A stretch of 16,747 nucleotides of DNA, from IMG/VR virus record IMGVR_UViG_2703718841_000001; one strand, 5' to 3'. Positions 1,659 through 14,720 of this stretch are shown here, in pieces. The notes below the pieces were generated by a model. It saw only the letters and a program-made list of their open reading frames with translations, was not told the DNA's origin and ran no database searches. A program made the translations under genes and the position numbers. Every line of letters starts with the position of its first letter. Positions within the stretch are counted from its first letter, which is position 1. The stretch comes from a virus. Lineage: Duplodnaviria > Heunggongvirae > Uroviricota > Caudoviricetes.

Positions 1659-4130
1659 TTAAGAATCAGCCTGACTCGGGATCAGTTTTTGCCAGATAAC
1701 TGAAACGTATTTTGCCTGGTAACGGGCGTCATCAAGTGCATTATGGCGCTCACCTTCGAATGGAATAGCCGTTCTGGCATCGAAGTCTATGGCTTTCCCC
1801 AGCTCAACGATTGTGCGTACATCGCGATCGTTGTAGTAACGCCACGGGCAGGGGATCCCCTGCCGTTCGTATGAACGGCGCAAAATCGTGTTGTCGAAGT
1901 TGGCTCCATTTCCCCAAACCTGAACAAAAAATTCACCGGAGTTTTCGTCGATAAATTCTCGCAATTGTAACAGTGCATCATCTAACGGGATTTCATCGGT
2001 CATAATGGCAGATTGCGCTTCGCGTGATTGCTTAAGCCACCATTTAATGGTGTCCCGATCAATGACTCCGCCAGCAGTTTCCAGATCGATAGTCTTACTA
2101 AATTCCGGTCCCATATCTCCGGTTTGCGGATCGAAAAATATTGCACCTATTGAGATGATCGGGGCATCAGGATTTTTTCCCATGGTTTCAAGGTCGATCA
2201 TTAGATGGTCACACGTCCTGCTGGTGGATGTGATTTCGTGATGACCGTTCACCTTAATTGGGTGATCTGCCGTCTCGCCAGTTTCATTATCGCTATTGTG
2301 ATGCTGATTGCCGCCAGTGTTCTCCTTGTGTGGATGTTCAGCGCCTTCCATTTCCTCCGGATCATCTTCCTGAACTTCAACCTGATACTCTTCATCGAAT
2401 GTTTCTTGGTATGTTGCGTCGCCCATCACCGCGCCACAATCAGGGCAGTTGCCGCCGCCGGTCTGACCGCAGGCGGTGCAGACTTTTTCCACTTCCTGTT
2501 GCGCTACTGGTTCAGGCTGTTTCGTTTCTGGCTCGTTTTGTAACGCATTTGGACTGTTTTGTTCCGCTTTTTGGTAGTTCCGTTCCGATTCATGCTGGTT
2601 CTGGTTCACAGAATCGCGGGTCTGGAGCCCCTTAACCCATTTCGGATCATTCGGGTCACTAATCCCTTCAACAAATTCACCACGTGATGCAGCAAGCAAC
2701 TTATCGGCGTCAGGCTGGCTGATATTGGCTGCCTGCATAATTTTGTTTACTTCGTCAGCGGTAACTTTTATCGGCTCTGGTTGTTCTGAATCTTCAGCGG
2801 TATCTACATTTTGCGGTAAGCCCGTGTATGTGCCATTTTTTCGGGCAAAATATTCTTCTTTTGTGATTTCAGTGGCGCCAGCAGCCAGTGCCTTATCCAG
2901 ACCAGAGAGTTTGTTTGCGCGACCGTATTTTTCTCCGTCCTTATCTGCGAAGAGGAAATAGAACGGCCTCTCACGCTCTACAGATGGTTCAGCTTCCGGC
3001 GCGGTTTCATTTTTTGGGATATCAGATACCTCAGTTTCCACTGCATCAGTTTGTGTTTCTGATGACTGGAGAACATCAACAGTGCCCAGGTCTGTTTCTT
3101 CATTCTCAAACACGCCCTTTGTCGTCAGGTATTCGCAGATATATTTGTTCAGTGCTACGGGATCTTTGTGAATGTCGATCGGACGCTCACGGACAAGGCC
3201 AAAAATAGTTTGGCGGTCGTAGCGAAGGGCATCAGGCTGTTTGCGCATTGATGCCGAGATACGCTTCCAGTCTTCGCGGTCGTTGTCGATAACTTCTTTT
3301 TTTGCCCAGCGATGGATGCTGCCGTCAATGTTTCCGGCATCCACATCACTAGGCCAGAGAGCGTAGGCCAGTTCGTCATCCAGTGTTTTCCATGTCTGCT
3401 TGTATTCGCGATGAATGGCAGCAATGACCGGGCTGATTTTTCCTGTTGAATTTTCAGTGTACTGTTGATTGGCTCTGGCGCGGGCGAGATCAACAACAGA
3501 CGTGTATTTTCCGGTTTCCTTGCGTTCACCTTCGCGACGTTTTTTCCAGATGCGCATCTCTGCCTGAATTTCGGGCCATTTAGCACCAGGAATACATTTA
3601 TGCTTAACCCACCCAATGGCGTGCAACTTAAGCTCCGGATACATGGCGTTAACTTCTGGCATTTTCATCAACGCTTCAACGATATGTCCGTCGAATGTTG
3701 CCATGTCTTCCTGCAACAATTCCTGTGCGCTAATAACCATATCAACGGTGATGTTTTCACATGTGTCGAACTTAACCATGACAGCGTTCTGTACTTCAGG
3801 GGCCAGCTTGTCAAAAGTGACGTTCATCGGATCGGATTCAGTCTCAACCGGGACAAAAGAAGCAGACTCCTCATCCCAGCGGTTTTCCTGCATATATTCA
3901 GCATCCCATGAATCGAGGGCAGGGCGGGGTATGCCAGGTTTATCCTCGCAGACAATAAATTTATAAGCGCAGTCCTGAGCAGCCGGATAATGTTCCAGGA
4001 ATTGCCAGTGAAATTTTGCTCGAGCACGGCGTTCGTCGCCAGCTTCAATGGCTGTGGCTACAGCCACAGCGCCTTCTTCCCTTGTTGCCAGTTCGTCAGG
4101 AATAGCGGCGCAAATAAAGACTTTACTCAT
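1659..4130 (-). CDS. Large exonuclease-like protein with C-terminal DEDDh 3'-5' exonuclease domain
   Basis: Long ORF (track 1659..4166). Preferred start is ATG at 4130 (MSKVFICAA…) with GAGG about 10 nt upstream. C-terminal ~185 aa carries DEDDh motifs: [30 protein letters not shown]. Centre is acidic and low-complexity with a CxxC…CxxC zinc ribbon ([16 protein letters not shown]). Confidence 0.8.
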
Positions 4131-4222
4131 TTGTTTTAACCTCATGACAGATTTAAGGATGAACAAATCCCTGCCATTGCTGGCATATAAGAATGAAACC
4201 GGATATTTATTACGGAACTGTT

Positions 4223-4414: not shown

Positions 4415-4566
4415 TGTGCACATCCTTTTGGCATCAGACGTAAACGAGCCAGCATTGAAACAATGCATATTTTATTTAATAGCTCCCGTTCTTGTTTTCT
4501 CTTGTTAATGGCATCTTCAGTAAATACTGGGTTAACTGGACTGCCTGGGCCAATGACGTGCGCACA

Positions 4567-4782
4567 ATGCGGATGCTGGATGGCAGAAGCCACAGACAAA
4601 TTTGCGAAATGTTTGGTCGGGTTCAGCGAGATCCATTCTGGGTAAAAAACATCATGAGCCCGTCAAAGCTCCGCGAAAAATGGGACGAACTGGTCATCCG
4701 CCTGGGACGTTCACCTGTACAGCGTTGTGTTAATCATATTTCTGAACCGGATACAGAAATTCCGCCTGGTTTCAGAGGATAA
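4567..4782 (+). CDS. Hypothetical protein (start uncertain)
   Basis: Track ORF 4492..4782 starts at TTG; first in-frame ATG is 4567 (MRMLDGRSHRQICEMFG…). No convincing SD. Overlaps a second frame (4463..4645), so a frameshifted remnant is possible. Confidence 0.3.
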   Translation: MRMLDGRSHRQICEMFGRVQRDPFWVKNIMSPSKLREKWDELVIRLGRSPVQRCVNHISEPDTEIPPGFRG

Positions 4783-4822
4783 GTGTTGATTTCAGGTCAT
4801 GAGGTAATTTTAAGGGGGACTT

Positions 4823-5245
4823 GTGGCAAAAGTTTTTACACAAGAAGAGCGGGAAAAAATTAAATGGCAGGTGGTGGAACTCGTGCGCCAGAGCGGCCGT
4901 GAGACGTTACGGCAACTGGAAGCTAAAACAGGTGCGACTAGATATCTGATGAGCGTTCTTGCCAGAGAGCTGGTAGCCAGTGGCGATGTATACAACTCCG
5001 GCTACGGGTTATTCCCCTCTGAACAGGCGCGTAAGGACTGGCAAAACGCCCGCAAAAAACTCTCGAGGGCAAAGGTGAAGAAACCTGCTGTGGTTGATCC
5101 GGACCTTATCTGGTCATCACCTGACGGAGAAATACGTCGCTACGACAGTCGCCTAAACATAATCTGTCGCGAGTGCCGGAAGAGCGAAGTTATGCAGCGC
5201 ATACTGGCTTTCTATCAGGGTAATTTTCAGGACGTGGCGCAGTGA
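4823..5245 (+). CDS. Hypothetical protein, possible winged-helix DNA-binding protein
   Basis: 140-codon ORF with GTG start and GGGGG SD about 4 nt upstream. Its stop TGA (5243-5245) overlaps the GTG start (5242) of the methyltransferase frame, indicating translational coupling. HTH-like segment RETLRQLEAKTGATRYLMSVLARELV. Confidence 0.6.
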   Translation: MAKVFTQEEREKIKWQVVELVRQSGRETLRQLEAKTGATRYLMSVLARELVASGDVYNSGYGLFPSEQARKDWQNARKKLSRAKVKKPAVVDPDLIWSSPDGEIRRYDSRLNIICRECRKSEVMQRILAFYQGNFQDVAQ

Positions 5246-5688
5246 GTGCACCGGCAACCATTCTTGATATGTGCTGTGGCAGCCGCATGTTCTGGTTCGA
5301 TAAGTCTGACGAACGGGCGATATTCAGCGATATCAGAAAAGAAGGATACACATTACGCAATGGGAGACGCTTGATTATCAGCCCTGACATTATCGCAGAT
5401 TTTCGTGCATTATCATTTGCAGACGCATCTTTTTCGATGGTTGTATTAGACCCTCCGCATCTTGAGAGTGTTGGTGATAACGCCTGGATGGGAAAGAAAT
5501 ATGGACGGCTGAATAAAGATGCCTGGCGTGATGATTCGCGACAGAGATTTAAAGAAGCCTTTCGGGTGTTGAGGCCGCACGGCGTTCTGATTTTTTAATG
5601 GAATGAAACGCAAATACCGGTAAGCCAGATTCTGGCACTGACAGACAGAAAACCTGTTATCTGTCAACGAACAGGGAAAAAACGATAA
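5242..5688 (+). pseudogene. SAM-dependent DNA methyltransferase, apparently interrupted by an in-frame TAA
   Basis: N-terminal 118 codons (5242..5598) carry LDMCCGSRMFWFDK and VVLDPPHL (DPPY-like) motifs. Frame stops at TAA 5596-5598 after …RPHGVLIF, yet the same frame reads on coherently (WNETQIPVSQILALTDRKPVICQRTGKKR) to TAA at 5686-5688. Confidence 0.55.
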
Positions 5689-6750
5689 AACCCACTGGAT
5701 TATTTTTATGAAAGAGGCATCCAGTGAGTAGATTCGTAAGGCTACAGATACGTATATCTGAATAATTAAATTCAGTTCTGTAAATAAAATTTAATCCTTA
5801 ACCGGATGGATTTCTGCACCCTCAGAACATCAGGAGGCCGCCCGAAAGGGCGGTAGTGAAATGCGAAAGTTCAAAATTATTATTGAAACGGGAATAGCTG
5901 GTGGAGATTTTGAGGATGTATTCGAAGTGGACGATGACGCAACACCTGAGGAAATTCATGACGGAGCATAAGAAATTTTCTTTAACTACTGCAATTACTC
6001 ATACCACGAAATAAAAGACGATGAGGAAGAACAAAGTGGCTGATTTTTGTTCAGCTAAATATAACATCAGTTTTGAAGAGCGGGATGAACTATTAATGGA
6101 CTATGGTGAGTTACGCGGTGGAAGTGCTGCTGATGTCGAATCCTAGCGTGATGACTATGAAGCGGGAAAAACTCCGGTCGAAGCATATTGTGATGAGTGG
6201 GGCGATGAATGAGCGAGATTAATTATCAGGAAGGGCATGAAACGGCGGGGCAAGCAAAACCAGTGGCATGGCGATATCGCTACGTGAAAAAAGGCGTTAC
6301 GGACTTTCAGGGGAAGTAGTGGTCTGGTGACTGGAAATATGTACCGAAAAAAGAGGATTGTAACGACAGGCCGAACTATCAAATTCAGGCCTTATTCACT
6401 GCCTCACCAGTCCCAGTTACATCAGAAGAACTGGTTAAAGCTGTGCACTTTTATGAACAACTAAAACGCGAAAATCCACCAACATCCGGCAACTAGATTA
6501 ATGGATTAACTATGTCGGTTAAACGACCAGCCAACTGAAAAAGCGGAAACCTGATTACAGGTTGCCAGATAAGGCAATGAGCTACCTGGCGCGGAACGGA
6601 CTGATAAGTATGGGGAATGTTTTACGATGAACCTTTAGACTAAAGAGTTTGTAACGCTATGTAAGTGATTTTTTCTGGTTTAGATATTTATATGTCCGGC
6701 CAAATTGAGGTGTGTTTAAATGTAATTGCACATTGATTGTAGGAGGAATA

Positions 6751-6930
6751 ATGAAAAACGCATTGCAGTTTTTGTTTGTTGCGTTCTGGTTGTTCGCATC
6801 ATGTATGCCCATCATCTTCACAGCAAGGTATATGGAAAAAGTTGATGTTTTGATATTAATATTTGGATATATAAATGCCCTTTTTTTAGGGGTGTTCATG
6901 GCGGTCATGTGCATTGAATACTGGCGGTAA
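6751..6930 (+). CDS. Small hydrophobic membrane protein (59 aa, two predicted TM helices)
   Basis: ATG at 6751 preceded by consensus SD AGGAGG (6741-6746). Product MKNALQFLFVAFWLFASCMPIIF…VLILIFGYINALFLGVFMAVMCIEYWR. AT-rich with rare codons, suggesting foreign origin. Track ORF 6712..6930 uses an upstream alternative start. Confidence 0.5.
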   Translation: MKNALQFLFVAFWLFASCMPIIFTARYMEKVDVLILIFGYINALFLGVFMAVMCIEYWR

Positions 6931-7020
6931 ATACAGCGAACTCCATTGGTTTAGTTGGATATTTACTGTACTGGACAAAAACGGTTTGCGGGGAAATCTT
7001 AGTTAAGTAGAATGACTGCG

Positions 7021-7190
7021 GGTGCTTGAGGCTATCTGCCTCGGGCATGGACACCAACGGCAGATAGAGAAAAGCCCCAGTTAACATTACGCGTCCTGCA
7101 AGACGCTTAACATTAATCTGAGGCCAATTTCATGCTAGACACATGTAGGTTAGCCTCTTACGTGCCGAAAGGCACGGAGAAGCAGGCTAT
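7021..7190 (+). other. hok/sok-type (type I toxin-antitoxin) leader remnant lacking the hok ORF
   Basis: 15-mer GGAGAAGCAGGCTAT at 7176-7190 is identical to 10490-10504, the SD/start region of hokD in this window. Upstream has hok-leader-like hairpins (7032-7040 with 7059-7067; GAAA-loop hairpin 7161-7176) and a mok-like frame from ATG 7132 to TAA 7207-7209. No Hok-like ORF follows. Confidence 0.5.
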
Positions 7191-8700
7191 TGTTAACACC
7201 AAGCTGTAATGTCCCCTTTGAACCATTCTAAAATGTCCCCAGACAATTCTCTGGGGGATTTTTCATGATCAAAGAGACTGTTACGATGAGTCATAAGGAA
7301 CTCCACCGACTTCAGATTATTCAGGAACAAGCTGCGGCACGCATTGGCATTTCTATTCGGCAGGTTAAACGTCTGGTGCAACGGTATAGAAATGAAGGGC
7401 CTTCTGGTCTGGTTTCCCACCGACGTGGAAAGCGTCCTAATAATTCCTTTTCTACTGAATTCAGAGCAACAGTAATTTCACTCCTCAAAGGCCGTTACGC
7501 TGATTTTGGACCTACGTTTGCGTGCGAAAAATTGCGCGAGATACACGGTTTATCTTTATCCGTTGAAACTCTCAGAAAGTGGATGATAGAAGAGGGGTTA
7601 TGGCGTGAACGCCGTCGTAAAATTGCCCGTATATATCAACGCCGCATGCGACGACCATCTTACGGTGAACTGATCCAGATTGATGGCTCACCTCATGACT
7701 GGTTTGAAAATCGAGGCCCCAGATGTACACTGATCGTTTTCATTGATGATGCCACCAGTGCGTTGATGGCGTTGCGTTTTGTGCCTGCTGAAACAACCCG
7801 GGCTTACATGGAAACCCTCCGGGGTTACCTTAATGATCATGGCGTACCGCTCGCTCTCTACTCTGATAGACACAGTATATTCAGGGTAAATAACCCAGAG
7901 CGGGAAGGTGAGCTGACCCAGTTCACTCGTGCGATAAAGACACTGGGCATCGAGCCAATCCATGCCAACAGCCCGCAGGCAAAAGGGCGGGTAGAGCGCG
8001 CCAATCAGACACTACAGGACAGGCTGGTCAAAGAAATGCGGCTTCAGAATATCAGTGATATTGAAACAGCAAATGCATGGTTGCCGACCTTTATTGAAGC
8101 CTATAACAACCGGTTCGCTACGTCGCCTCGTACTACTGATAATGCTCATCTTGATGTGCACCATTCTGAAGAGGAACTGGGTTATATCTTCAGCCTACAG
8201 GCGAAGCGCGTTCTGTCTAAAAATCTCACTTTCCAGTACAAAAGCAGTGCGTTTCAGGTACGCAGTGAGGGCCGGGGATATCGACTTAGGCATTCGGTTG
8301 TTACTGTATGCGAGAACTTTGACGGTGAAATTAACGTTCTGTATGACGGGAAAGCGCTGGGCTGGGAAAAGTATGTTGATGGCCCGGAGCCTATACCACT
8401 GGATGATGAAAAGAGTGTCCATGAACGAGTGGATAATGCCCGTATTGATTTACGCTCAAAATACTATGTTAAACCTAAAGCTGACCATCCCTGGCTTACG
8501 CGCCGAACGCAAAGTCATCAGCAAGTTAAGCCCCCGAAGTTACCTAAAAAGAAGCCTGATCCCGATAAAAAAGATTGAAACCAAGATCGATTCGGTTGAG
8601 TGCATATCCATTCATAGGGTAGATTCTTAAGTCGCGTTTCTGGTGTTCATTTTCGGGTGGTTTGTTACTTGTTTTACCGGGGATATGCCAGAAACGCGCT
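7191..8700 (+). mobile_element. Insertion sequence carrying the transposase (ends not resolved; coordinates approximate)
   Basis: Left boundary placed at the point where the hok leader homology breaks (7190/7191). Right boundary is a guess; no clean terminal inverted repeats or target-site duplication could be found by eye. Confidence 0.3.
7265..8578 (+). CDS. DDE transposase with N-terminal HTH and integrase-core (rve) domain
   Basis: 437-codon ORF. N-terminal HTH (ARIGISIRQVKRLVQRY), rve-like core (IQIDGSPHDWFE…LYSDRHSIF…QAKGRVERANQTLQ), basic C-terminal tail. Family not resolved (IS481-like or ISNCY/IS1202-like). GGGGGA SD lies in a hairpin just upstream. Confidence 0.85.
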   Translation: MIKETVTMSHKELHRLQIIQEQAAARIGISIRQVKRLVQRYRNEGPSGLVSHRRGKRPNNSFSTEFRATVISLLKGRYADFGPTFACEKLREIHGLSLSVETLRKWMIEEGLWRERRRKIARIYQRRMRRPSYGELIQIDGSPHDWFENRGPRCTLIVFIDDATSALMALRFVPAETTRAYMETLRGYLNDHGVPLALYSDRHSIFRVNNPEREGELTQFTRAIKTLGIEPIHANSPQAKGRVERANQTLQDRLVKEMRLQNISDIETANAWLPTFIEAYNNRFATSPRTTDNAHLDVHHSEEELGYIFSLQAKRVLSKNLTFQYKSSAFQVRSEGRGYRLRHSVVTVCENFDGEINVLYDGKALGWEKYVDGPEPIPLDDEKSVHERVDNARIDLRSKYYVKPKADHPWLTRRTQSHQQVKPPKLPKKKPDPDKKD

Positions 8701-8911
8701 GAGTCAGTCTGGGCGGTGCGCGTAATGAGGCGTTATGGTAAATAGCCTATGCTAATGTCCGCTAAGAGCAAGAAGCGGAAGTTGGCAGTTTTGTGGACTG
8801 TCCCCACAAAAGTGACTACAGAAATAGTTGCAATTCATAATTGATCATGGGTTGTCAGTTAAACTCGTGGCGATTTAAATAGACTAATTGGGAGTGCGTC
8901 CATTACTTATA

Positions 8912-8961
8912 TCTTGTAATGTTAACTATCAGAAATTCTTGTAATGTTAACTATCAGAAAT
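8912..8961. repeat. Perfect tandem direct repeat, 2 x 25 bp (TCTTGTAATGTTAACTATCAGAAAT)
   Basis: Unit at 8912-8936 is repeated exactly at 8937-8961. Contains palindromic GTTAAC. A 12-bp inverted copy (AGTTAACATTAC) occurs at 7079-7090. Confidence 0.95.
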
Positions 8962-9039
8962 GATACAAAGATAATATGTCTTTAAAGAAAAGGCTGATGG
9001 CGAAAAGTGGCCCGATGAGGGCCACAATACGGCTGTCAC

Positions 9040-9372
9040 TTAGACGTAAATATCAATGGTGCCAGCGGTATTTGTATCGTCTTTTTTCTCTTCTTTTTTA
9101 TCAGGCTGAACTGTCGCGTCTTCATTCTTTTTCTCTGCCTGCTGCCTTAACAACTGCTCCAGTTGAGCCCAGAGGCTTTCAATTTGCTTCTGTACCAATG
9201 CAGCCATTTCTTTTTTCTGCTGTGTCGTCATCCCCTCTTCCGATGAGATTTTCCCAAGCTTTTCAGTCAGCACCTGAATTTGTCTTGTGATTTTGGCTAT
9301 TTCTGATGTTCCTTCCGGGGCGGAGTTGTTTGAAATAACGGTTGAGGTATTTCCCTGAATTGTGACAGACAT
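9040..9372 (-). CDS. flxA: FlxA-like protein (flagellar-regulon member of Qin prophage)
   Basis: 110-codon ORF; coiled-coil, Lys/Glu-rich product matching FlxA as I recall it. AAGGAG SD upstream of ATG (9372). Sigma-28 promoter immediately upstream. Confidence 0.85.
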   Translation of the reverse strand: MSVTIQGNTSTVISNNSAPEGTSEIAKITRQIQVLTEKLGKISSEEGMTTQQKKEMAALVQKQIESLWAQLEQLLRQQAEKKNEDATVQPDKKEEKKDDTNTAGTIDIYV

Positions 9373-9395
9373 AGATTTCTCCTTTTAAAAAAGCA

Positions 9396-9422
9396 CTATC
9401 GGCATGCACAAAAAAATCTTTA
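9396..9422 (-). promoter_or_regulatory. Sigma-28 (FliA) promoter for flxA
   Basis: On the minus strand: TAAAGATT (9415-9422), 11-nt spacer, GCCGATAG (9396-9403). Consensus is TAAAGTTT-N11-GCCGATAA. Lies about 25 nt upstream of the flxA start. Confidence 0.75.
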
Positions 9423-9574
9423 ATCGTATTTCTTGTGTCATTAATTGTTTGATGTTCAGATTGTTTTCCTCGCGGGCTGGCGCGCCTCAGAAAGTAAAGC
9501 TTGTTGACAGGGGTAAACGTTCGGCAATAATTTTCTGCCGCATGCGGGTGTTGCATAAAACGTGTTACGTTCCT

Positions 9575-9880
9575 TTATCGACAGGTCAGGTCACCGCTCA
9601 CCCGCCGACGAGAAAGCAACACTGACATGCTAAAGCAAAAAATAGATGAATAAGTTGAGTTGTGCATATGTAGCCTGACCGTCACAAAGTATATGGTGTC
9701 TGTACCAGTAAGATGATGACCGGACTCTTTAAAAACGAGCTGACCTGCACAATACAGGATGGACTTAGCAATGGCTGCTCCTGGCACAAAGCGGACAGTG
9801 ATCACCGTTCTTACGACTACTTTCTGACTTCCTTCGTGACTTGCCCTAAGCATGTTGTAGTGCGATACTTGTAATGACAT
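9575..9880 (-). CDS. ydfV: Hypothetical ORF, ydfV-like by length and position (doubtful gene)
   Basis: 101-codon ORF between flxA and relB, matching the length and position of ydfV in Qin as I recall it. Its start codon lies inside the relBE operator; no SD. Coding status doubtful. Confidence 0.25.
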   Translation of the reverse strand: MSLQVSHYNMLRASHEGSQKVVVRTVITVRFVPGAAIAKSILYCAGQLVFKESGHHLTGTDTIYFVTVRLHMHNSTYSSIFCFSMSVLLSRRRVSGDLTCR

Positions 9881-9893
9881 TTGTAATTACAAG
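9868..9893 (+). promoter_or_regulatory. relBE operator/promoter region (relO-like inverted repeat)
   Basis: CTTGTAATGACATTTGTAATTACAAG, an inverted repeat around TTGTAAT, directly upstream of the relB SD (GAGGTG) and ATG at 9905. Confidence 0.7.
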
Positions 9894-9904
9894 AGGTGTA
9901 AGAC

Positions 9905-10144
9905 ATGGGTAGCATTAACCTGCGTATTGACGATGAACTTAAAGCGCGTTCTTACGCCGCGCTTGAAAAAATGGGTGTAACTCCTTCTGAAGCGCTTCGT
10001 CTCATGCTCGAGTATATCGCTGACAATGAACGCTTGCCGTTCAAACAGACACTCCTGAGTGATGAAGATGCTGAACTTGTGGAGATAGTGAAAGAACGGC
10101 TTCGTAATCCTAAGCCAGTACGTGTGACGCTGGATGAACTCTGA
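9905..10144 (+). CDS. relB: RelB antitoxin (type II TA)
   Basis: 79-codon ORF, MGSINLRIDDELKARSYAALEKMGVTPSEALRLMLEYI…; stop overlaps relE start (TGATG). Confidence 0.92.
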   Translation: MGSINLRIDDELKARSYAALEKMGVTPSEALRLMLEYIADNERLPFKQTLLSDEDAELVEIVKERLRNPKPVRVTLDEL

Positions 10145-10431
10145 TGGCGTATTTTCTGGATTTTGACGAGCGGGCACTAAAGGAATGGCGAAAGCTGGGC
10201 TCGACGGTACGTGAACAGTTGAAAAAGAAGCTGGTTGAAGTACTTGAGTCACCCCGGATTGAAGCAAACAAGCTCCGTGGTATGCCTGATTGTTACAAGA
10301 TTAAGCTCCGGTCTTCAGGCTATCGCCTTGTATACCAGGTTATAGACGAGAAAGTTGTCGTTTTCGTGATTTCTGTTGGGAAAAGAGAACGCTCGGAAGT
10401 ATATAGCGAGGCGGTCAAACGCATTCTCTGA
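10144..10431 (+). CDS. relE: RelE toxin (ribosome-dependent mRNA interferase, type II TA)
   Basis: 95-codon ORF, MAYFLDFDERALKEWRKLGSTVREQLKKKL…; overlaps relB stop by 1 nt. Confidence 0.92.
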   Translation: MAYFLDFDERALKEWRKLGSTVREQLKKKLVEVLESPRIEANKLRGMPDCYKIKLRSSGYRLVYQVIDEKVVVFVISVGKRERSEVYSEAVKRIL

Positions 10432-10502
10432 ACCAAAGCATGACATCTCTGTTTCGCACCGAAGGTGACACTTCTGCTTTGCGTTGACAGGAGAAGCAGG
10501 CT

Positions 10503-10658
10503 ATGAAGCAGCAAAAGGCGATGTTAATCGCCCTGATCGTCATCTGTTTAACCGTCATAGTGACGGCACTGGTAACGAGGAAAGACCTCTGCGAGGTACG
10601 AATCCGAACCGGCCAGACGGAGGTCGCTGTCTTCACAGCTTACGAACCTGAGGAGTAA
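10503..10658 (+). CDS. hokD: Hok-family type I toxin (HokD/RelF)
   Basis: Found by direct reading; below the ORF-track length cutoff. ATG 10503, product MKQQKAMLIALIVICLTVIVTALVTRKDLCEVRIRTGQTEVAVFTAYEPEE (51 aa), stop 10656-10658. GGAGAAG SD upstream. Confidence 0.85.
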   Translation: MKQQKAMLIALIVICLTVIVTALVTRKDLCEVRIRTGQTEVAVFTAYEPEE

Positions 10659-13922: not shown

Positions 13923-14222
13923 AAAAATTCCTTAATACTGATAACTTGGCGCACTATACACACGTTCCTGAAGAAAGCTATAGTTTTTTGATGGGGTTGA
14001 AGATGGCTGGATGTCTAAAATAAACATTGCTTCATATGTTCAACTATGCGTTAATGATTGCGTCGGTTTGAAGAACAGACGATATACGAAGTAGTTTACT
14101 AAAGCAGTTCTCATTTCAGGTGTTATTCACTTATTCCTTCTTTGAGTCTCTCCAATTAAGTACGAAGTCGTTTCTGTTATGCAAACCATTTATGCCGAAA
14201 GGCTCAAGTTAAGGAATGTAGA

Positions 14223-14438
14223 ATGTCAAATAAAATGACTGGTTTAGTAAAATGGTTTAACGCTGATAAAGGTTTCGGCTTTATTTCTCCTGTTGATGGT
14301 AGTAAAGATGTGTTTGTGCATTTTTCTGCGATTCAGAATGATAATTATCGAACCTTATTTGAAGGTCAAAAGGTTACCTTCTCTATAGAGAGTGGTGCTA
14401 AAGGTCCTGCAGCAGCAAATGTCATCATTACTGATTAA
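14223..14438 (+). CDS. cspB: Cold-shock protein CspB
   Basis: 71-codon [41 protein letters not shown]…, with RNP motifs. Long 5' leader (13923-14222) shared with divergent cspF. Confidence 0.88.
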
Positions 14439-14720
14439 AATTCATCGCTCGTCTGTATACGATAACGAAGAAGGCTGATGCCTGAGTAGAGATACGGACA
14501 GAGTAGTGAATATTGGATCTCTTTAATAAAAAGTAAGGAGGTCCAATACATGAAACAATGGCTAGCATATTTGGCAAAATCTTAATCAGGAAAAGTATGC
14601 TAACCATTGTGGTGAAGTGCAGGTTTGCTGCATGAATAGTTTTACAGCAGAAGCTAACTGCTGGCATGGCAAAACAAAGTGCGTAAGTGGATGACTCCCA
14701 CAAAAAGCACCACAATCTCA

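Follow-up and report, generated by a model that had tools for sequence, protein, structure and literature searches.

Positions 7191-10489 of the window, by which we mean the whole stretch of 16,747 nucleotides analysed here, very probably form a unit transposon 3299 bp long that belongs to the IS1202 family, carries the relBE genes and has inserted into hok in a Qin-like lambdoid prophage. The first-pass annotation had instead described an element of about 1.5 kb ending at 8700, a coordinate that turns out to be the boundary of nothing; the unit that we delimit is 3.3 kb long. relBE of E. coli K-12 is a founding model for work on type II toxin-antitoxin systems, and hokD (relF) is a classic "truncated" hok locus. 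The structure of the transposon offers a concrete mechanism by which relBE and hokD would have become one operon; it also explains the K-12 gene ydfW (intK) and puts flxA and ydfV on a mobile element.

Ends, target duplication and empty site

The left inverted repeat (IRL, 7191..7216, + strand, TGTTAACACCAAGCTGTAATGTCCCC) starts with 5'-TGT and the right one (IRR, 10464..10489, + strand, GGTGACACTTCTGCTTTGCGTTGACA) ends with ACA-3'; the two match at 19 of 26 positions. Position 7191 is the left homology boundary common to copies in more than 30 different flanks, and the right-end type (…TTGACA) is also present in distant relatives that are plain insertion sequences. Both ends are directly abutted by a duplication that is perfect over 15 bp, GGAGAAGCAGGCTAT. 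Its left copy (7176..7190) consists of the Shine-Dalgarno sequence of hok and the AT of the start codon, and its right copy (10490..10504) gives hokD its Shine-Dalgarno sequence and start codon. The absence of clean inverted repeats and of a target duplication, recorded at first reading, is real inside 7191-8700 but does not extend to the whole element with its right end at 10489. In fact, when we searched 6900-9100 for inverted and direct repeats ourselves, none was convincing, because the right end falls outside that range. We rejected TGTAATGTCCCC at 7205 as a terminus, with right ends near 8806/8821 (…ACTACA), because these match at 11 of 26 positions at most and the homology of all copies is bounded at 7191.

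Inside the left end, the direct repeats AATGTCCCC (7208-7216 and 7232-7240, + strand) are likely transposase-binding sites; a second subterminal site has been described for the IS1202 family (PMC10132070). Subterminal repeats at the right end are clear for GGTGACACT at 10464 and weak, at 5 of 9 positions, for CATGACATC near 10439.

The target can be read from the two halves of the locus. To the left lies an orphan hok leader (the sok/mok regulatory region, 7020..7190, + strand), which the Rfam sok model RF01794 matches in full (7020-7191, 104 bits, model positions 1-157 of 157) and which aligns to the intact hok loci of prophages L085 and L086 and of phage 933W as far as 7190, where homology ends. 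The element begins exactly at this break, as was noticed from the start. To the right, downstream of relBE, lies the severed other half, the hokD (relF) ORF (10503..10658, + strand), whose region is identical to the hokW region of 933W at 110 of 111 positions. Leader and ORF, here separated by the 3299-bp element, are contiguous in all three references: L085 and L086 show an uninterrupted leader-hok-rem-DUF968 order, and in 933W (sokW/mokW/hokW), as in dozens of lambdoid/Stx phages, the flanks are adjacent with a single copy of the 15-mer. The empty site of 933W spans 187 bp (91 + 111 - 15) and joins 7190 to 10490. An empty site joining 6691-7190 to 8791-9290 was found in none of 5426 E. coli genomes, and when 21 genome loci were searched with flanks of 2.5 kb, the left-flank 15-mer recurred in the Qin copies alone.

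We propose that the transposon inserted by cutting and strand transfer with a 15-bp stagger, duplicating GGAGAAGCAGGCTAT, and that it struck hok of a Qin-like lambdoid prophage at the ribosome-binding site and start codon. The insertion would have orphaned the mok/sok leader 3.3 kb upstream of hokD, while the hokD ORF would have kept a copy of the Shine-Dalgarno sequence and ATG, now directly behind relBE, with presumed effects on hokD expression. Insertion into the start of hok would explain the relB-relE-hokD(relF) arrangement of E. coli K-12.

Transposase and cargo

The first-pass call of a 437-aa transposase with HTH and rve-type domains stands. Its gene (7265..8578, + strand) is a continuous reading frame that NCBIfam NF033594, "ISNCY family transposase", matches with 456.4 bits against a cutoff of 250, over protein residues 14-368 and model positions 7-365 of 368. 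Pfam HTH_32, HTH_29 and HTH_28 match within residues 20-107 (in this allele, which is 9 residues short there), and the rve_3 core scores 24.4 bits, slightly below the Pfam cutoff of 26.5. The catalytic residues D140, D201 and E244, together with Q251 at E+7, all fall in invariant alignment columns; a DDE triad with Q, rather than K or R, seven residues past E is a hallmark of the IS1202 family (PMC10132070). Full-length relatives measure 433-447 aa, and PGAP names the 446-aa allele "IS1202-like element ISEsa1 family". Judged by these sequence features, the ORF is a genuine IS1202-family, ISEsa1-like DDE transposase.

The intact allele is 446 aa long. The one in the window has lost 27 bp in frame at about 7321-7327, between TCAGGA direct repeats, and with them nine residues of the N-terminal HTH region (ESINRHITQ) that are conserved in all 446-447-aa relatives. 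Because its transposase lacks these residues, a loss that we take to be inactivating, the present copy is probably immobile and fixed in the prophage. At the other end of the protein, the last 49 codons correspond, in frame, to ydfW, the intK of K-12 (8429..8578, + strand; PGAP annotation and translation). This tail is conserved across the aligned transposase family, and by that comparison the K-12 orphan gene ydfW is the tail of a transposase. PGAP labels the transposase "partial, missing C-terminus" and annotates these 49 codons apart as ydfW; we rejected the label because the ORF is continuous. A promoter and terminator scan gave no signal beyond shuffled expectation, save one hairpin 5' of the transposase ATG.

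Behind the transposase come four passenger genes: flxA (9040..9372, - strand, placed by the annotation of an identical record), ydfV (9575..9880, - strand) and the type II pair of antitoxin relB (9905-10144, + strand) and toxin relE (10144-10431, + strand), which are conserved and adjoin the IRR. The transposase module and the relBE-IRR module recur in all complete elements, which differ in the middle. The right module (9777-10489), which includes the 5' third of ydfV, is 99% identical in every complete element examined. The exchangeable segment holds flxA-ydfV, cytochrome b with a CDF transporter, or others; the part containing flxA is swapped for other genes in L089, L203, L226, L154 and L135. 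The conserved transposase module ends, and the variable cargo starts, at 8754..8789, a boundary that contains the inverted pair AATGTCCGC ... GCGGAAGTT (GCGGACATT in other copies). Copies diverge from one another at 8769-8790, and in plasmid copies an ISEsa2 insertion follows the equivalent of position 8773. The segment 8620-8783 is also found alone on plasmids; we rejected it as a separate functional module, the one inspected case being a remnant beside IS26.

Compared across copies in this way, flxA, ydfV and relBE are cargo of the 3.3-kb transposon and not, as they had been read, a separate Qin-like right arm. The element has a single transposase gene and its right end is a bare IRR adjoining relE with no second IS, which is not the structure of a composite transposon. 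Nor is it a simple IS of 1.3-2.0 kb with a single ORF: at 3299 bp, with flxA, ydfV, relB and relE besides the transposase, it is better termed a transporter IS or unit transposon.

Other copies, choice of target and known relatives

Complete copies lie in other hok genes with matching duplications of their own: a 6093-bp copy on IncHI2 plasmid L089 (duplication GGAGAAGAAGGCCAT), a 7694-bp copy in L154 (GGAGATGTATGGGTCC), copies in L226 and L223 (GGAGAAGAAGGCCATG), and further ones in L203 and L208. Duplications of the other complete copies and of distant relatives are 15-16 bp long; one complete copy at a non-hok site (L120) has a flanking repeat of just 6 bp. Roughly 170 loci bear the IRL, many of them one Qin insertion sampled repeatedly, and among these we count about 33 distinct left flanks of the hok Shine-Dalgarno type, in which the insertion is offset by 13-17 bp from GGCAA. 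In Klebsiella, Enterobacter and E. coli, plasmids of the IncHI2 and IncF types commonly carry the element, with metal-transport or other cargo; the transposase module matches 902 plasmid records. Selection for sites where insertion is tolerated, instead of targeting, may account for some of the hok bias, and the matching duplications across hok loci may partly stem from homologous recombination between these loci.

The distant relatives are plain IS of 1.44-1.79 kb with the same type of ends and 15-16-bp duplications, and in most copies (T)GTCAA/GCAA stands immediately 5' of the duplication. We envision that G(G/T)CAA, a motif similar to the clade's own terminus, would direct insertion to a point 15-16 bp downstream and be recognised as a pseudo-end at that distance from the joint. 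Hok leaders have GGCAA-GGAGAAG... at the corresponding position, which may be why the enterobacterial elements recur at the same spot in hok. On balance, we lean towards a wider reading in which a relBE-carrying IS1202 lineage homes, through recognition of the G(G/T)CAA pseudo-end, to the ribosome-binding sites of type I hok genes on plasmids and prophages. It would remove Sok/mok control, place a still-translatable hok ORF behind relBE and swap or stack addiction modules, and relBEF, ydfW, flxA and ydfV of K-12 would be relics of one such event.

ISEsa1 (IS1202 family; ISNCY, IS1202 group in ISfinder) has a similar transposase with DDE+Q and an N-terminal HTH, the region that is shortened in our copy. 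The family has terminal inverted repeats of about 26 bp with TGT...ACA, also found here, and a repeated subterminal motif near each end, which is clear here at the left end; the imperfect repeats of our element fall in the family range of 24-26 bp. ISfinder, as quoted in PMC10132070, gives ISEsa1 a length of 1609 bp, a 15/22 TIR and no target-site duplication, and the same paper states that "targets were not found". The present element, in contrast, is 3.3 kb long (its lineage elsewhere up to 7.7 kb) with passenger genes, its lineage duplicates 15-16 bp, and it has a recognisable target in the hok ribosome-binding site. The ISTde1 subgroup makes direct repeats of 15-17 bp (bioRxiv 10.1101/2022.12.17.520857); it resembles our element by this length class and by its TGT termini and, unlike it, has no reported target preference. 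The ISAjo2/ISAba32 subgroup of the same family, which uses dif/pdif (XerC/D) sites, inserts in a specific orientation, its IRL side lying a constant number of base pairs from the sequence that is recognised, as here. However, its landmark is a dif-like site, lying 5 bp away at the XerC-binding site with duplications of 5-6 bp, whereas ours is G(G/T)CAA in the hok leader and both distance and duplication are 15-16 bp. The IS1202-family transporter IS (tIS) ISKpn21 and ISKpn65 likewise carry passengers between the transposase gene and the IRR, but these amount to one hypothetical ORF, in place of the conserved relBE module and exchangeable segment of our lineage.

Our searches of the literature on ISEsa1, hokD/relBE/Qin and ydfW/flxA turned up neither the transposon nor its targeting of hok, the sole related statement being that relBE "integrated" into hokD. 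Among the chromosomal hok loci of K-12, hokA is reportedly inactivated by IS150, and hokC and hokE by IS186 (Pedersen and Gerdes 1999). In these cases too a mobile element disrupts hok, but they are ordinary IS near hok loci. Here the insertion falls at one defined position at the Shine-Dalgarno sequence and ATG, is seen again in many homologues of hok and imports a type II toxin-antitoxin system. Ends, a duplication of 15-16 bp and a target are now assigned to a branch of the IS1202 family previously without any found. One addiction module is carried and another specifically disrupted by the same transposon, a situation that lends itself to direct laboratory test.

The missing immunity region and competing explanations

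An alternative would place a simple, roughly 1.5-kb IS where two different prophage arms meet and have it cause or mark a deletion of the immunity and replication genes. We consider this reading, which was that of the first-pass annotation, extremely improbable. It does account for a real transposase, for a hok leader that breaks at 7190/7191 and for the missing genes: the annotation of an identical record shows neither dicA/dicC-like nor replication genes between dicB' and the transposase. K-12 itself has a different deletion, which ends inside the transposase at window position 8394 and leaves only 8394 onward. But the flanks do not behave as two arms. The left one (DUF977, methyltransferase, hok leader) and the right one (hokD, rem, ydfU, ydfT) come from a single prophage type and adjoin each other in related Qin-like and lambdoid prophages and phages without the element, L085, L086 and 933W among them. 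By this synteny the whole window is one Qin-like prophage adjoining rspB. Comparison with K-12 Qin did define what was lost: the window equals K-12 up to 4534 and strain 17MR471 from 4533, and at this junction (4533..4534) 3252 bp are gone, corresponding to 7112..10363 of L090. The lost segment holds the 5' part of dicB, dicF, ydfC, ydfB, ydfA, a dicA-like repressor, a dicC/cro-like gene, a ydaT-like gene and 716 nt of the gene that follows. Microhomology of 4-5 bp marks the junction, which contains no IS sequence and lies 2.66 kb to the left of the IRL. Moreover, 17MR471 and phage PhiR42_1 have the element together with the complete immunity region, and their synteny excludes a second prophage at 4534-7190. 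Of the proposed IS-mediated disruption or deletion, it is the disruption that survives, as the split of hok at 7190/7191; as these alignments place it, the loss of dicA/dicC and the replication genes is an event separate from the insertion of the transposon.

Little more credit is due to the idea that the mobile element is a 1.6-kb ISEsa1, running from 7191 to a weak IRR at about 8773-8806, with flxA-ydfV-relBE as an unrelated neighbour and the distal repeats as remnants of another event. The quoted ISfinder length and 15/22 TIR would fit it, as would the halt of homology among many copies at 8769-8790 and an inner-repeat-like GCGGA(C/A)(A/G)TT at 8781-8789. Yet the 17 bp past 8789, where the outer IRR is expected, differ in each context, and in no locus examined is 7191 to about 8790 flanked by a duplication. 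In at least six contexts it is the distal IRR that shares the 15-bp duplication with the IRL, and this distal IRR is of the end type of the plain-IS relatives. In plasmid copies, 1609/1610 bp is the distance from the IRL to the ISEsa2 insertion point; the length that ISfinder gives for ISEsa1, known to us by quotation, appears to stop there, which suggests that its delimitation needs revision. One could also accept the 3.3-kb transposon as described and attribute its recurrence in hok to recombination between hok loci or to selection of harmless sites, rather than to sequence-directed targeting. We regard this as unlikely, if less so than the two readings above. In its favour, the plasmids and prophages concerned are rich in hok loci that share flanking homology, some copies (L149, L235) are recombinants whose left and right flanks do not match, and some insertions lie outside hok (L008, L016, L157, L160 and others). 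Sequence-directed targeting is favoured by offsets that vary by 1-4 bp among hok variants, with joints after ...GGCC, ...GGCCA, ...GGCCAT or ...GGCCATG, and that therefore call for separate transposition events. In addition, several of the non-hok flanks have GGCAA/GCAA at 15-16 bp from the IRL, and the distant relatives, in unrelated genomes and with no hok, follow the same rule of motif plus spacing.

A relBE transposon inserted in hok

The first-pass annotation saw a ~1.5-kb IS (7191-8700) joining two prophage arms. The observation is real, but its interpretation has to be replaced: what was seen is the transposase module of an IS1202-family transposon that carries relBE and targets hok, and its ends and duplication lie outside that interval. 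The transposase does sit at the hok-leader break, as first noticed; the Rfam sok/hok-leader model is complete at 7020-7191 and the alignment with intact hok ends at 7190. Copies in 21 other genomes all share the left end at 7191 (TGTTAAC…) regardless of context. On the right they part ways between 8769 and 8790, because ISEsa2 (IS110 family) or another IS inserted there or different DNA follows. The left-flank 15-mer has no second copy near these divergence points, none of 5426 E. coli genomes contains the empty site expected from a 7190/8791 join, and no convincing terminal repeats occur inside 6900-9100. The reported lack of clean repeats and duplication thus holds for that interval, but not for the element once its right end is placed at 10489.

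The clue to this right end came from two element-free prophages with intact hok (L085, L086), which read …DUF977 … hok leader-hok-rem-hypothetical-DUF968-Q and relative to which the hokD-rem-ydfU-ydfT block of the window is displaced 3.3 kb rightward. Together with the sequence immediately upstream of hokD (…GGTGACACTTCTGCTTTGCGTTGACA|GGAGAAGCAGGCTATG), this shift defines a left inverted repeat (IRL) at 7191-7216 and a right one (IRR) at 10464-10489, which match at 19/26 positions and have TGT…ACA termini. They enclose 3299 bp, and GGAGAAGCAGGCTAT at 7176-7190 is repeated at 10490-10504. In a phage collection, the flanks 7100-7190 and 10490-10600 match one 187-bp place in 933W, VT2-Sakai, mEp460, Rac-SA53 and dozens of other lambdoid phages, and 187 is exactly 91 + 111 - 15. 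In 933W this is the annotated sokW/mokW/hokW locus, with one GGAGAAGCAGGCTAT and identities of 84/91 (left) and 110/111 (right). Such a single-copy empty site is the classical proof of transposition with a 15-bp duplication. There is no meeting of two prophage arms at the IS: the flanks are contiguous in L085, L086 and 933W. Directly 5' of the duplication, the window (7171-7175) and most Qin copies read GGCAC, versus GGCAA in intact hok loci and most other insertion sites, which may be a post-insertion change.

The duplication would restore a Shine-Dalgarno sequence and ATG ahead of hokD (10503-10658), while the mok start, the Sok target region and the fold-back elements would stay with the orphan leader (7020-7190). 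In 1999 Pedersen and Gerdes reportedly observed that hokD is missing its upstream elements. After the insertion, hokD would be expressed solely from the relBE transcript, as its distal gene. In K-12, co-transcription of hokD with relBE is attributed to Gotfredsen & Gerdes 1998 in PMC5120126. Ramisetty and co-workers pointed out that relBE 'integrated' into hokD through horizontal transfer, without an element, ends or duplication (PMC6379469, PMC5120126).

The transposase and its choice of target

The transposase ORF (7265..8578, forward, 437 aa) has the HTH plus rve make-up first ascribed to it: it scores 456 bits against NCBIfam NF033594 (ISNCY family transposase; cutoff 250), with N-terminal Pfam HTH domains and an rve_3 core slightly below cutoff. 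The closest intact allele is an 'IS1202-like element ISEsa1 family transposase' in PGAP, and relatives in E. coli, Shigella, Klebsiella, Enterobacter, Citrobacter, Kluyvera and others have 446-447 aa. The window allele carries a 27-bp in-frame deletion between two TCAGGA repeats (7321-7327) that takes ESINRHITQ out of the conserved N-terminal HTH region; this allele is found in ~530 E. coli records, the intact one in ~268. Catalytic D140, D201 and E244 are kept, as is the Q at E+7 that serves as the IS1202-family criterion (PMC10132070). The window copy is structurally complete and probably inactive.

The 'missing C-terminus' reported by PGAP comes from the annotation and is not real: the final 49 codons are listed apart, in the same frame, as ydfW (8429-8578, GTG start), and this tail (…DDEKSVHERVDN…KP.ADHPW…) is among the best-conserved parts of the family. 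K-12 retains only the equivalent of 8394 onward, fused to ydfX/dicC, so its ydfW (intK; 4036-4185 of the K-12 locus L004), which equals those 49 codons, is a transposase remnant. Directly before the transposase ATG, a terminator-like hairpin followed by ATTTTTC (7236-7257) may shield the gene from read-through from the hok leader or sequester its ribosome-binding site.

Genomes of Hahella, Thiorhodospira, Arenicellales and Binatia contain more distant relatives in multiple copies; these are plain IS, 1443-1786 bp long, with transposases 56-63% identical. Their ends are of the same type (TGTTAGC…AATGTCCCC / GGGGACATT…TTGACA), with duplications of 15-16 bp, and on the IRL side most copies have (T)GTCAA or GCAA abutting the 5' edge of the duplication. 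Read inward, the outermost bases of the element's own IRR spell this motif. These features support the distal IRR of the window as the genuine end type and a choice of targets, in this clade, by a short, fixed-distance pseudo-end motif. In hok leaders the motif is present as GGCAA-GGAGAAG, which the transposase would presumably read.

Variable cargo and the published boundary of ISEsa1

By the relE-IRR junction, the element is in 1204 of the 5426 complete E. coli genomes; the transposase is present at >=80% in 789 of them, and its module is on 902 plasmid records. A further 147 loci came from searching IMG/VR and metagenomes with the exact IRL; complete elements among them measure 3273-3304 bp (Qin type, +/- 27-bp and 25-bp indels), 4237, 4600, 4655 and 7694 bp. 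Common to all complete elements are the transposase module, which extends to about 8773-8779, and, at 99% identity, the right module 9777-10489 (relB promoter, relBE, IRR); the middle segment varies. Several lie in other hok variants with matching 15-16-bp duplications, e.g. GGAGATGTATGGGTCC and GGAGAAGAAGGCCATG. On an IncHI2 mcr-9 plasmid (L089), a 6093-bp element (IRL-tnp-(ISEsa2)-cytochrome b-CDF transporter-ΔydfV-relBE-IRR) interrupts another hok gene and has GGAGAAGAAGGCCAT on either side. About 33 distinct hok-SD-type left flanks, with joints 13-17 bp past GGCAA, imply that insertion must have happened repeatedly and independently. Copies outside hok are the minority, and several of these have GGCAA/GCAA 15-16 bp from IRL.

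Harmer & Hall (PMC10132070) give ISEsa1 a length of 1609 bp and a 15/22 TIR, list it as lacking a duplication and state that its group had yielded no target, in contrast to the 3299 bp and 15-bp duplication here. In plasmid copies, IRL lies 1610 bp from ISEsa2, so the 1609-bp ISfinder length, taken from the published listing, may reflect a nested ISEsa2. ISEsa2 occupies the same transposon point (…GCTAAGAGCGAGA|TATAGTC…, equivalent to 8773) in L003, L006, L007, L009-L012, L089 and L019, from at least two different contexts, which suggests site-specific targeting. Siguier et al. described a 15-17-bp duplication class (ISTde1), compared with 15 bp here, along with a few members that carry passengers, and mentioned neither ISEsa1 nor hok (bioRxiv 10.1101/2022.12.17.520857). 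Our search, of largely open-access literature, found nothing further on ISEsa1, hokD/relBE/Qin or ydfW/flxA.

A 3301-bp copy at a non-hok site (IMG/VR contig L120) is flanked only by a 6-bp repeat, CGCCTT, versus the usual 15-16 bp. Upstream of flxA, the window (8912-8961) has a perfect 25-bp tandem duplication (TCTTGTAATGTTAACTATCAGAAAT x2), single in K-12, 17MR471 and most other elements (3274 vs 3299 bp). An Enterobacter hormaechei IncFII/IncR plasmid (L088, 9001-19620) has the transposase module at a hok ribosome-binding site in the psiB-psiA leading region, followed by ncrABCY nickel and chrBA chromate resistance genes; IRR was not found over 10.6 kb. In Leclercia sp. EMC7 (L021, 1832-4382), 10 bp separate a relBE-IRR remnant from the IRL of another element. 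This second element has a 79% identical transposase, and its cargo is a different RelE/ParE-like toxin with a Phd/YefM-like antitoxin. Toxin-antitoxin genes may recur as cargo across this lineage.

The host prophage and its separate deletion

E. coli chromosomes, PSJ-12 among them, contain the window at 100% identity; it adjoins rspB, the K-12 Qin site. The identical record is annotated, in order, with integrase, excisionase, exonuclease, ydfD, 5'-truncated dicB, a 3' gene fragment, DUF977, methyltransferase, two pseudogenes, 'ISNCY transposase', ydfW, flxA(-), ydfV(-), relB, relE, hokD, rem, ydfU, ydfT, cspF/cspB and lysis genes.

Immunity genes are indeed missing, but their loss was not IS-mediated as proposed. 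The left part (int side, exonuclease, ydfD, dicB 3' end) matches K-12 Qin up to 4534; from 4533 the match is to the gene after ydaT in strain 17MR471, at its 3' end. At the same rspB site 17MR471 has dicB-ydfC-ydfB-ydfA-dicA-like-cro/dicC-like-ydaT-ORF-DUF977-methyltransferase and then the same transposon, and the phage record PhiR42_1 also has the full dicB-to-methyltransferase series. The window therefore lacks 3252 bp (7112-10363 of the 17MR471 locus, L090), comprising the dicB 5' end, dicF, ydfC, ydfB, ydfA, dicA-like, dicC/cro-like, ydaT and part of the next gene. K-12 itself has a different deletion, which took everything left of 8394 and ends beside ydfX/dicC. The junction at 4533-4534 shows 4-5 bp of ACTG-type microhomology and no IS sequence, and the deletion is unrelated to the transposon, 2.66 kb away.

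The Qin-like phage record PhiR42_1 (L239, PV340562.1, from ECOR13), a 48.7-kb genome that includes cI, cro, cII, O and Q, has a 3274-bp copy in its hok locus, so the transposon is also carried by phages that look complete. The two annotated pseudogenes (5861-6630), which separate the methyltransferase from the hok leader, are a DUF7167 gene interrupted by an internal stop and a hypothetical gene with a frameshift. Rfam places the cspA thermoregulator (159 bits) at 14062-14454, within the 5' leader of prophage cspB.
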